A DNA stretch of 64,000 nt from an uncultured Bdellovibrionales bacterium (GTDB taxonomy: Bacteria; Bdellovibrionota_C; UBA2361; SZUA-149; CAZDWZ01), in NCBI GenBank assembly GCA_964405665.1, contig CAYOOT010000001.1, forward strand, positions 30,046-94,045. Reading direction: 5' to 3'. Under the pieces are notes generated by a model. That model made no database searches and had not been told where the DNA came from. It worked only from the letters and a program-made list of their open reading frames with translations. How positions within the stretch are numbered: the stretch's first letter is position 1; each line of letters starts with the position of its first letter. This document shows positions 28,363 to 30,189 of this stretch, one piece after another. The position numbers and the translations under genes were made by a program.

Positions 28363-30189
28363 CTAAATCAAATAGGCAAATAACAAACATAGTAATGGCA
28401 GCATTTTGATGAGAAATATTTGGTGGGCGACTAATCCTCTTGATTTTATTGTACATTTATCATTTACCACTATTTCTTTTCTGCTAGAAACAAAAACCAA
28501 AGGAAGACTAGCCAAAAGACAGGATAAAGAAAAAGCACCTAAAGCATCTTTTCCCAGAAGTATTCCAATTAAAAAAGGCAAAACCAAAAGTATCGCAAAA
28601 TTAACAATGATCGCTTTTTCACTAAACTCTTGCAAATCTTCTCTTGAATAATCTTTATTAAGAAAATCCACTATCTTGGAAAGCAATAAGGCACTGGCAA
28701 AGCCAGGGGAACAAAAACCAAGGAGCAAGCCAGCAATTACATAGAGATCAGTTAAAACTAATTCATCAAGTTGTGCTGACTGAGTATAGGCAATAAACAA
28801 ACAGATTGCCGTAATAATACTGGCAAAACGTAAATAAGCTCCTCCTTGACTTGCCGCTTTATTGCCAATTTCCTTAAGTTCCAAAAGACTGTTTTTTGTT
28901 TCGGCATCCAAATCTGAAACTTCTGCAATAGCATTGGCACTGGCCGCGATTTGCCCAAAAGAATGAATACTATAATTTATCGCCAATACAGAGAATAAGG
29001 AAACGCCCCCAATGGCAAACCCATAGGCTCCCGCAAAATAATTCATCAACAACATCACCACTGCCAACAAAACAAGTTGAGAAATCACTTCCAGCGAAGA
29101 ACATTCTTCCAATTTCAACAGTTTGCTTAAAGCACTTTCTATTCTTTGTTGAATTTTAAAATAAAAAACCAGGATTCCGACAATTGCTCCCAGCAAAACC
29201 ACCGCTAAAACTTTGAATTTTACAGGTGAAAAAATTAAAAGAAATGAAAAAATTAAAAATAAAGAAGTGGACATTAGACTTGCCACGCTCAGCGCTCTTT
29301 CTGGGTCTTCGTCTTTATAATTTTTTACCAGTTTTATTCCAATAATCGAACTGATTATTCCCAATAAAGACAAAATTAAGGGAACAGCCATTAGTAAAAA
29401 ATTAAACTTATCTAATTCTTCGGCAGGAAAATCTAAAGAGGCTGTGGTGAGAATAGTTAACAACTCCGGAGTGGCCGAGGCGGCAATAATGATTGCCGCT
29501 GTAAGCAAAGAAAGACAACAGACAAAATAATCAAGGCCGGTATATATCAATAAAAGCTGACTCTCTTTAAAAGAATCTTCCAAGGAATCTTTTTTGGTGG
29601 CAGCAATCGAAGCTTCCAAAATGCAAGCTTTAAACAAGATGATATAAGCAACTAATGCTGCTCCAAAAGTAAAGCAAATAAAATATTGTACCGAATAAGC
29701 AGAATTAAAAAAATAAAATAATAAACCAAAACCAAGAAGGATTGTACTTCCAAAGGATAAACCGGAAATTGCCGAACCACAGAAACAAAGATAAAATGCT
29801 TCATTTCTACCTTTATCTTTTGCTACCGCCACTGCCCGAATATTAGCTTCAGTCACGGCAATTGAGGCAAAATATAAAGGAATTAAAATACAAGCTCCTC
29901 CAAAAACAAAACTTAAAGCACCGAGGAGTCCAAAAGATGAATTGAAAAATAAAATTAAACCGAGTACGGAAATAAAAATTATTAAAGTTTTACTTTGAAA
30001 TTTAAAAAAGTTCCTAATCATCGAAGCAAGAGCATGTTGCGCCTCCTGCATTTTTGCGGTTCCTGTTGATTCGATTAAAAGAGAATTGTAAATTTCAAAA
30101 GCAGTGATTAAACCCACGGCTCCGGCAACCGGAACAAAAATGGTAATTAAGGAATTAAACCAATAAAGTAATTTTGTAAAAAAGCTCAT
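28363..30189 (-). CDS. Polytopic membrane protein, possibly a divergent and catalytically degenerate homologue of membrane pyrophosphatases
   Basis: It has about 14 to 16 TM segments. By eye it is co-linear with M-PPase blocks (ANIRAVAVA...AFY..GSAISGLSFGSTILLGFGLL resembles ANARTT..AFRSGAVMG..GLGLL). It lacks the Asp-rich catalytic motifs [14 protein letters not shown] and DNVGDNVGD. Confidence 0.3.
   Translation of the reverse strand: MSFFTKLLYWFNSLITIFVPVAGAVGLITAFEIYNSLLIESTGTAKMQEAQHALASMIRNFFKFQSKTLIIFISVLGLILFFNSSFGLLGALSFVFGGACILIPLYFASIAVTEANIRAVAVAKDKGRNEAFYLCFCGSAISGLSFGSTILLGFGLLFYFFNSAYSVQYFICFTFGAALVAYIILFKACILEASIAATKKDSLEDSFKESQLLLIYTGLDYFVCCLSLLTAAIIIAASATPELLTILTTASLDFPAEELDKFNFLLMAVPLILSLLGIISSIIGIKLVKNYKDEDPERALSVASLMSTSLFLIFSFLLIFSPVKFKVLAVVLLGAIVGILVFYFKIQQRIESALSKLLKLEECSSLEVISQLVLLAVVMLLMNYFAGAYGFAIGGVSLFSVLAINYSIHSFGQIAASANAIAEVSDLDAETKNSLLELKEIGNKAASQGGAYLRFASIITAICLFIAYTQSAQLDELVLTDLYVIAGLLLGFCSPGFASALLLSKIVDFLNKDYSREDLQEFSEKAIIVNFAILLVLPFLIGILLGKDALGAFSLSCLLASLPLVFVSSRKEIVVNDKCTIKSRGLVAHQIFLIKMLPLLCLLFAYLI

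Follow-up and report, generated by a model that had tools for sequence, protein, structure and literature searches.

Membrane pyrophosphatases (M-PPases; Pfam family PF03030) have been investigated both as primary ion pumps and as drug targets. They contain between 15 and 17 transmembrane (TM) helices, organized in an inner ring (helices 5, 6, 11, 12, 15, and 16) and an outer ring with a largely unknown function, and they form dimers with half-of-the-sites reactivity (PMC10897367). The active-site Asp, Asn, and Lys residues, located on TM5, 6, 11, 12, 15, and 16, build the Mg2+ cage, bind pyrophosphate (PPi), and are completely conserved; D16.39 and D6.43 keep the nucleophilic water in place, and the ion gate or binding site comprises E6.53/57, D6.50, S6.54, and D/N16.46, plus K16.50 (PMC10897367). 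In this study, we analyzed a stretch of 64,000 nucleotides (nt) from an uncultured Bdellovibrionales bacterium (GCA_964405665.1, contig CAYOOT010000001.1, positions 30,046 to 94,045), further called the window. An open reading frame (ORF) at 28363..30189 on the minus strand encodes a protein of 608 amino acids (aa), for which we use the shorthand X and which is a degenerate homolog of the M-PPases. An earlier interpretation of this DNA, made from the letters and their ORFs only (the sequence-only reading), had delimited the ORF exactly and had suggested that its product is a catalytically dead relative of the M-PPases.

The described enzymes closest to X are the NF001961-type M-PPases of PF03030, such as TmPPase (4AV3). 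X has in common with them its ancestry, 16 TM helices, an N-out/C-out topology, and equivalents of D6.50 and K16.50, but it has lost ~17 of 21 active-site residues and the conservation of the inner ring, and its loops 5-6 and 15-16 are shortened. A second M-PPase of 833 aa, encoded in the same genome, belongs to the same superfamily (PF03030), but to another subfamily, and its motifs are intact. Outside the M-PPases, the iRhoms are likewise conserved polytopic membrane descendants of an intramembrane enzyme with key catalytic residues missing (PMC3149277). They are eukaryotic, form a single conserved subfamily, and have a demonstrated regulatory function in endoplasmic reticulum quality control (PMC3149277), whereas X is bacterial and its kind arose repeatedly. 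A dead deoxyhypusine synthase paralog of trypanosomatids activates the live enzyme (PMC3663545) and offers a precedent for a dead homolog acting as partner subunit, which is of conceptual relevance here given the dimeric state and the half-of-the-sites reactivity of the M-PPases (PMC10897367). In contrast to that pair, X and the live enzyme of the window fall in different subfamilies, and the dimer-interface helices of X are not specially conserved. We found no description of inactive M-PPase homologs in the literature, including a 2024 review of microbial pyrophosphatases, with subscription journals being only partly covered.

Homology and Fold of the X Protein

The reading frame of X runs uninterrupted from its ATG start to the stop codon. 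The protein matches Pfam PF03030 (H_PPase) with an E-value of 1.7e-37 and 129.8 bits (gathering score 29.7), and TmPPase (4av3) with an E-value of 5.9e-14 in a phmmer search of PDB sequences. The sequence-only reading had noted by eye that X is colinear with several conserved M-PPase blocks. The block it quoted is recovered in the phmmer alignment, which covers TM3–TM4 (ANIRAVAVA...GSAISGLSFGSTILLGFGLL in X versus ANVRVAEAA...GGSVMGLSVGGFALLGL in 4av3), and a MAFFT alignment shows X to be colinear from TM1 to TM16 with both its nearest relatives and intact enzymes. An AlphaFold2 model, built from an alignment that includes intact relatives, has a predicted local distance difference test score (pLDDT) of 83 and a predicted template modeling score (pTM) of 0.88, and it superimposes on TmPPase and VrPPase with a TM-score of ~0.8 and an E-value of ~1e-20. 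Both the profile and the structural similarity, on the absence of which the idea of homology would have foundered, are thus present.

The models give 16 predicted TM helices instead of the roughly 15 counted before, and X has the M-PPase architecture of 15–17 TM helices in an inner and an outer ring. Twenty-three Lys and Arg residues are predicted on the cytoplasmic side and five on the periplasmic side, which agrees with the canonical N-out/C-out topology predicted for X. Against the twelve NCBIfam M-PPase equivalog models, X scores between 52 and 172 bits and misses all cut-offs (546–1321 bits) by far. Its best match is NF001961 (171.8 bits, cut-off 926), and X is ~60–90 aa shorter than M-PPases of this type. 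As judged from profile and fold, the resemblance of X to the M-PPases is homology and not a matter of composition.

Loss of the Active Site and Partial Retention of the Ion Gate

None of seven catalytic motif patterns is found in X, while its 33 nearest relatives in a word-index search all have an essentially full set. X keeps ~4 of 21 active-site positions (the exact count varies with the alignment in the shortened loops), compared to 21 of 21 in outside enzymes and in the intact ortholog at locus L016. This bears out the earlier observation that the Asp- and Lys-rich catalytic motifs are missing.

The losses were located in alignments, and all the coordinates given here are on the minus strand. 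Residues ~181–213 of X (29551..29649) are the remnant of the end of TM5, cytoplasmic loop 5-6, and the start of TM6. The motifs GGG(I/Y)TKxADxGADLVGK and DNVGDNVGD are substituted or lost here through in-frame deletions of ~6 and ~10 aa: TM5 is ~6 aa shorter than in intact enzymes, with both Asp residues gone, and the 10-aa deletion removes the DNVGDNVGD with which TM6 starts in intact enzymes. Residues 405–450 (28840..28977) comprise TM11, the subsequent loop, and TM12. The TM11 motif DxxGPxxDNAGG (DAYGPIADNAGG in intact enzymes) has become HSFGQIAASANA in X, and GNTTAAIGKG in TM12 has become GNKAASQGGA, with N443 kept and K12.60 gone. Residues 565–599 (28393..28497) correspond to the end of TM15, loop 15-16, and the start of TM16; GGAWDNAKK of TM15 is replaced, and a deletion of ~20 aa in the loop and TM16 takes out GDTVGDPFKDTSGPS. 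D16.39 falls within this deletion, and the position of D6.43 holds a Leu in some alignments and is deleted in others. The ion gate is partly preserved. Asp220 (codon 29530..29532) aligns with D6.50 and Lys595 (codon 28405..28407) with K16.50, both of which are kept; at the other gate positions, E6.53 is changed to Val and S6.54 to Cys, and 16.46 is deleted.

With most active-site residues and the conservation of the inner ring lost and two cytoplasmic loops shortened, PPi-driven pumping by X is not expected. The sequences firmly establish X as a de-catalyzed positional ortholog of an M-PPase and, at this level, rule out a PPi-driven pump. X combines clear homology to an enzyme family with the loss of essential catalytic residues, as is characteristic of pseudoenzymes.

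Orthologs in the pth-rpsF Slot

In a set of 5.8 billion clusters, the exact X protein forms a cluster of its own. A word-index search with X returned, besides X itself, intact enzymes only, with an identity of at most 27%, and the same set was obtained again when the search was repeated with an alignment of degenerate members. The orthologs came from an exhaustive HMMER search with X against 1.84 billion cluster representatives. This search yielded 730 matches, including P0105 (a 145-aa fragment that is 99% identical), P0106 (intact, 698 aa, the best full-length match), and many full-length proteins without any catalytic motif. Scans of genome collections with X and with Pth gave nothing useful, the latter producing chance peptide matches in unrelated phyla.

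The X orthologs are encoded directly after pth and, wherever the contig reaches that far, before rpsF-rplI. Their loci share the ispE-prs-L25 genes upstream and a hypothetical protein of ~300 aa downstream with the window. This pth-rpsF slot encodes P0107 (568 aa), P0128 (679 aa), P0135 (689 aa), P0108 (694 aa), P0148 (625 aa), P0188/P0256 (625 aa in its true form), P0221 (563 aa), and P0255, which is the same as the intact P0106 (698 aa, GCA_020845775.1). A metagenome scan anchored on Prs revealed an intact M-PPase of 681 aa in the same slot (L034). P0106 passes the NF001961 cut-off (967 versus 926 bits) and is the nearest or near-nearest neighbor of X, P0107, P0108, P0128, P0135, and P0148. 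Residues 238–272 of X (29374..29478, minus strand), covering periplasmic loop 6-7 and the start of TM7, contain a family-specific element (L..LT.F ... (Y/F)R..LM..PL) that occurs in the intact and the degenerate syntenic orthologs but not in outside M-PPases; this common loop supports the orthology of the slot genes. The genomes concerned have diverged from the window, with identities of 61–79% for Prs, 34–47% for Pth, and 35–37% for IspE, and a GC content between 31 and 56%. Conservation of the ORF in relatives, which the sequence-only reading had named as a check, thus takes the form of orthologs in one and the same slot that range from intact to degenerate.

History of the Slot

The slot occurs in several states: two copies are intact, one is intermediate, seven are degenerate (0–5 of 21 active-site residues kept), and at least six genomes have no gene at this site. 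All 21 residues are kept in L016, and L034, compared at the level of motif patterns, contains each of the six patterns tested. The intermediate copy of L014 (P0108) keeps 19 of 21 residues, with Gly replacing both D6.43 and D11.57. Of the residues inferred for the ancestor, 71% are still present in this copy, and its NF001961 score is 695 bits, below the cut-off of 926; judging by its sequence, the enzyme may have been inactivated recently. Among the degenerate copies, five residues are kept in L018, four in both X of the window and L011, three in L012, two in L015, one in L010, and none in L019.

The Prs-anchored sample is independent of the presence of X. Six relatives (L025, L026/27, L030, L031/32, L037, and L042) have the same extended synteny, but pth is directly followed by rpsF, and pth likewise adjoins rpsF in the more distant L048, L049, L053, and L084. 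A hidden Markov model search of the pth-rpsF gaps of the X-less relatives found no remnants of X.

A neighbor-joining tree of the concatenated Prs, L25, Pth, S6, and L9 proteins (1021 columns, rooted on L048) contains two clades. In clade A, the intact L016 is sister to a group in which the degenerate L011 branches off before the window and the degenerate L010; in clade B, the intact L034 is sister to the degenerate L021 together with six X-less lineages. Both clades were recovered in 60 of 60 bootstrap replicates, while neither the two genomes with an intact X nor the genomes with a degenerate X were united in any of the 60. When partial loci are added, the outgroups are without X and L015 falls in clade A; on few columns, L014 is sister to L011/L012 and L019 is nested among the X-less lineages of clade B. 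Since intact and degenerate copies occur in both clades, catalysis was lost at least twice, and at least two independent catalytic losses are thus shown on the basis of these sequences. It is also shown that an NF001961-type gene (K+-dependent, Na+-PPase-like) was already present in the pth-rpsF slot in the ancestor of this Bdellovibrionota-like clade. The simplest reading comprises a single insertion of such a gene between pth and rpsF, after which catalysis died independently at least twice and the gene was completely deleted at least once.

The fraction of derived residues in common is 0.16 for sister pairs and 0.11–0.19 for cross-clade pairs, and deletions hit the same cytoplasmic-loop columns repeatedly, even across clades. 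Because sister pairs are no richer in common derived residues and the deletion columns recur, the decay looks largely independent and convergent.

Probable Selection on the Degenerate Proteins

At four-fold degenerate sites, the observed identity of 0.21–0.33 is close to that expected at saturation (0.23–0.29). All eight genes are free of in-frame stop codons, although a neutral sequence would by now have been scrambled and riddled with stops; shuffles predict 18–45 of them per gene. The degenerate copies are 19–29% identical to each other (MAFFT), with matches down to an E-value of 1e-35, and keep 15–16 helices, the hydrophobicity of the TM cores, and the positive-inside bias. Thirty-three columns are identical in at least six of the seven degenerate copies and mainly contain Gly, Pro, Leu, Phe, and Trp within helices. 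Intact copies evolve slowly (62% identity between L016 and L034, and 75% between L034 and P0002), and the degenerate copies keep 26–47% of the inferred ancestral residues.

The distribution of conservation over the protein differs between both types. In live enzymes, the mean identity of the inner ring is 0.67 versus 0.41 for the outer ring, compared to 0.25 versus 0.24 in degenerate copies. In the degenerate copies, conservation is lowest in TM11 and TM12 and near the levels of live enzymes in TM1, TM7, and TM8, and the similarity to live enzymes is greatest for TM16 and TM6. Catalytic residues are retained at 0.10 against a background of 0.29 (p=3.5e-8), and the five gate residues at 0.57 against the same background (p=6e-4; a test designed post hoc, with 35 cells). 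An acidic residue at 6.50 or 6.53 is present in all seven degenerate copies, and Lys or Arg at 16.50 in all six with a TM16.

Open hydrophobic reading frames, together with the conservation of helix packing across saturated silent sites, point to selection on the protein. By these comparisons, the X protein itself, beyond its open frame, has probably long been under selection in several lineages, with selection merely for an open frame in the operon as the less probable alternative. An apparent omega of ~0.7 for L018/L021 was rejected as an artifact of a contig breakpoint ~50 nt before the L018 stop codon; apart from that, the pair has a single difference over 1.7 kb. At this breakpoint (~6217), L018 diverges from L021 and continues with unrelated genes, pointing to a rearrangement or to a contig of chimeric make-up.

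The Resident Intact M-PPase

The window encodes a second M-PPase of 833 aa (NF001950 type) at 49252..51753 on the minus strand. The sequence-only reading had rightly taken it for a bona fide M-PPase: it matches PF03030 with an E-value of 3e-174 and NF001950 with 1265 bits (cut-off 826), and all of its catalytic motifs are intact. In its TM12 motif, GNTFKA, a Lys takes the place of the Ala found in K+-dependent enzymes, and by the K12.46 rule the enzyme is presumably of the K+-independent type. The NF001950 model carries the name ‘sodium-translocating’ despite this motif. The 833-aa protein also has an N-terminal extension of ~60 aa that resembles a signal or an additional helix.

A direct BLASTP comparison of X with the 833-aa M-PPase gave no significant match. 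We considered this result as evidence against homology and set it aside, as it is outweighed by the strong profile and fold results. It does bear on the parentage of X, together with the placement of both proteins in different NCBIfam subfamilies (NF001961 and NF001950). The sequence-only reading had proposed a dead M-PPase paralog, either a pseudoenzyme or a repurposed transporter. The dead homolog stands, but the paralog, in the sense of a duplicate of the resident enzyme, does not. According to these comparisons, the 833-aa enzyme is not the parent of X, and X is no recent copy or duplicate but was inherited in place in the pth-rpsF slot. The resident enzyme is nevertheless a possible source of functional redundancy.

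Genomic Context

Read along the minus strand, which carries all the genes of this series, the gene order is an ispE-like kinase gene, tRNA-Gln, prs, ctc, pth, X, rpsF, rplI, a gene for a hypothetical protein of 303 aa, and tRNA-Pro. The conserved synteny block starts with the ispE-like GHMP kinase (32901..34004), followed by prs (ribose-phosphate pyrophosphokinase, 31733..32686), ctc (ribosomal protein L25, 30933..31703), and pth (peptidyl-tRNA hydrolase, 30186..30788), which directly precedes X in the same operon-like string. The stop codon of pth and the start codon of X overlap in an ATGA sequence (30186..30189), a layout typical of translational coupling. The sequence-only reading had placed X upstream of the pth/ctc/prs cluster, but X is transcriptionally downstream of pth, as its ATG overlaps the pth stop codon. 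Downstream of X, rpsF (S6, 27875..28255) follows after 107 nt, then rplI (L9, 27330..27857) and the conserved 303-aa hypothetical protein (26376..27287). The junction between pth and X is tight in five of the seven degenerate loci (the overlap in the window and gaps of 2–8 nt in L011, L012, L021, and L019), and the gap in the intact L016 is 193 nt. A scan for promoter and terminator consensus sequences around X found about as many sites as expected by chance, with no promoter-like site in the 107-nt gap between X and rpsF. A weak hairpin overlaps the X stop codon, from which we conclude nothing. The window has a GC content of ~35%, and the nearest named relatives of its TypA are from a Bdellovibrionota metagenome-assembled genome (MAG; 80% identity) and an Oligoflexia MAG (74%).

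Some further features of this region were noted. In the window (gap 27857..27875) and in all syntenic loci, rpsF adjoins rplI directly; the usual rpsR (S18) and ssb/priB are absent between them throughout the clade. The ~300-aa protein downstream of rplI is present in every syntenic locus with 28–36% identity and matches neither Pfam nor NCBIfam models. This conserved unknown is linked to the ribosomal-protein string, and in several relatives a protein with a Wzy_C domain comes next. L25/Ctc (30933..31703, minus strand) has a long low-complexity C-terminal tail rich in Ala, Thr, Pro, and Gly. The plus-strand ORFs 30846..31208 and 30886..31182 (120 and 98 aa, respectively), which arise antisense to the GC-rich L25/Ctc coding sequence, are almost certainly not genes. 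At 22336..26173, three adjoining genes, for a methylmalonyl-CoA mutase of 546 aa, a carboxyltransferase of 515 aa, and a small biotin-carrier protein of 157 aa, suggest a propionyl-CoA/methylmalonyl-CoA pathway module.

Possible Function of X and Alternative Explanations

With moderate confidence, we propose that X is a noncatalytic membrane pseudoenzyme in which the M-PPase scaffold has kept a function. X would be a polytopic inner-membrane protein with the 16-helix M-PPase architecture that neither binds nor hydrolyzes Mg2-PPi, and it would be co-expressed with Pth via the ATGA overlap. The loss of catalysis would be tolerated because another pyrophosphatase, for example the intact NF001950-type enzyme, covers the removal of PPi, and selection would maintain a role of the membrane scaffold that is independent of hydrolysis. 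A structural or regulatory subunit seems the most likely role, either self-associating or pairing with a live M-PPase via the dimer interface of helices 10, 13, and 15; a transporter role would be less likely. We put forward more tentatively that the hydrolysis-independent second function of the scaffold predates the loss of catalysis and was kept in several lineages that were de-catalyzed independently. Its candidate seats would be the outer helix ring, the family-specific periplasmic loop 6-7, and the buried acid-Lys gate, and it might consist in modulating a live M-PPase dimer as a partner or in providing a cation pathway independent of PPi.

Several points weigh against this proposal. The trees are simple neighbor-joining trees of five proteins, and X in L016 or L034 is possibly a replacement by horizontal transfer. 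No pair of degenerate genes is close enough for an estimate of the ratio of nonsynonymous to synonymous substitution rates, the close pairs being identical or nearly so (L012/L013, L021/L022) or having only six differences (L020/window). Neither a conserved polar site nor a new motif is found in the degenerate copies, and beyond the gate pair, for which the test was designed post hoc, and R263, the conserved residues are generic helix-packing residues. The dimer-interface helices 10, 13, and 15 are conserved no more than other helices and thus lend the heterodimer idea no direct support. X is also dispensable, as it has been cleanly deleted in at least six related lineages.

Signs of erosion add to these points. 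Degenerate copies are 563–689 aa long, against 681–698 aa for intact ones. L020 (ENA ERZ3430528, 905 nt, ~1x coverage), from a 99.3%-identical strain, corresponds to 28203..29107 of the window. It differs by six substitutions, all within X, the 160 nt downstream being free of them, and one of the six turns codon Glu440 of X (GAA, 28870..28872, minus strand) into a TAA stop, which may be a nonsense allele or a sequencing error. The 563-aa protein of L019 (P0221) is followed past its stop codon by a TM16-like remnant in the +1 frame (...PLINLYMLLLSSLALLIVIYI, L019 3100..3380), due to either a frameshift or an assembly indel. With the L020 stop and the L019 frameshift as exceptions, X of the window and the six other degenerate orthologs do not have the disrupted frame of an ordinary pseudogene.

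These signs would suit a long-lived relic without a function of its own, which is the main rival explanation and which we regard as less likely. X would have lost its use once its catalysis was redundant. However, it lies between pth and the essential rpsF-rplI genes and would be translationally coupled to pth, and stops and frameshifts would be purged since they are polar on rpsF-rplI or give toxic membrane fragments, while in-frame trimming and an eventual clean deletion would be allowed. The presence of intact, intermediate, degenerate, and absent states in a single slot is as expected for a decay series, and at least six lineages lost the gene without a remnant. The degenerate copies are shorter with lineage-specific deletions, their conservation is flat at ~25% without a conserved polar site, and the L019 frameshift and the possible L020 stop allele at E440 give the appearance of ongoing erosion. 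The tight pth-X junctions and the lack of a promoter-like site in the 107-nt gap to rpsF also agree with such a relic. However, the orthologs are still mutually recognizable and have all 15–16 helices, Gly/Pro packing, and a positive-inside bias despite saturated silent sites; selection for an open frame alone would not keep residue identities and the full helix set. The buried gate pair is retained above background, and the L020 stop, which stems from a contig with ~1x coverage, possibly reflects a sequencing error. Given the deletion bias of bacteria, a useless gene of 1.8 kb is expected to be gone well before the divergence of clade A.

The retained gate raises the question whether X has been repurposed as a passive path for ions or as a protein that binds them. 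It might then serve as a leak for cations or protons, as a channel, or as a sensor that is not powered by PPi. The elevated gate retention (0.57 versus 0.29), the invariable presence of an acid at 6.50/6.53 (7/7) and of Lys/Arg at 16.50 (6/6), and the similarity of TM16 and TM6 to live enzymes speak for such a protein. Nevertheless, this explanation is quite improbable: the four-residue Na+/H+ site is incomplete in X of the window (E6.53V, S6.54C, and 16.46 deleted), the charged residues of the coupling funnel on TM5, 6, 11, 12, 15, and 16 are gone, conservation is lowest in TM11 and TM12, L019 has no in-frame TM16, and the buried acid-Lys pair may persist for structure alone.

A pyrophosphatase or related hydrolase with a rebuilt active site is hardly credible. 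Acidic residues E204 and D205 are located near the cytoplasmic loops, and the segments on the cytoplasmic side contain 26 Asp and Glu residues, but D6.43, D16.39, and most of the Asp, Asn, and Lys residues of the Mg cage are substituted or deleted, and no acidic cluster is conserved in the seven degenerate orthologs. A merely compositional resemblance between hydrophobic membrane proteins, with which the nonsignificant BLASTP comparison of X and the 833-aa M-PPase would agree, is refuted by the profile and fold results and can safely be dismissed.

Degenerate M-PPases Beyond the Slot

Among the 102 full-length cluster representatives (≥520 aa) most like X, 35 contain none of five catalytic motifs and 22 contain all five, in a set that is skewed to degenerate forms and gives no prevalence estimate. 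An all-against-all comparison showed that the nearest neighbor of most motif-less proteins is an intact enzyme, which points to many independent degenerations. A single clade uniting all motif-less matches with X was ruled out, as most of them are nearest to intact enzymes. A group of 708-aa proteins from Oscillospiraceae, motif-less according to strict regular expressions, was rejected because all key residues are present in variant motifs. Some M-PPase homologs among the matches are ~300 aa over the usual length (P0018, 970 aa; P0109, 967 aa; P0122, 960 aa; P0184, 957 aa), and P0018 has an OmpA-family domain (PF00691) fused to PF03030.

A protein from Mogibacterium (P0147/P0260, MBQ6440179.1, 599 aa), which forms a 51-member cluster found in 101 index blocks, resembles X in being a full-length PF03030 protein without catalytic motifs that is stably present in a string of housekeeping genes. 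It differs in its independent origin, its nearest neighbors being other degenerate or intact enzymes, and in its gene context (pgk-tpi-secG-X-ackA-pheS-pheT). Its source names it ‘sodium/proton-translocating pyrophosphatase.’

X is a member of PF03030 by descent and fold without the defining catalytic features, and it is part of a recurrent phenomenon that is annotated as active enzyme. A single operon slot offers a natural series, from an intact enzyme over one with two residues lost to a de-catalyzed protein and a deleted gene, which is replicated at least two times. This series shows which constraint survives the loss of hydrolysis, namely that on the scaffold, the gate pair, and the periplasmic loop, and makes a possible hydrolysis-independent role directly testable. 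PPi-driven energy conservation that is derived from a Pfam match alone will be wrong for genomes with motif-less PF03030 proteins. If our proposal is true, degenerate M-PPases would represent a recurrent, unrecognized class of bacterial membrane pseudoenzymes that are annotated as active pumps.

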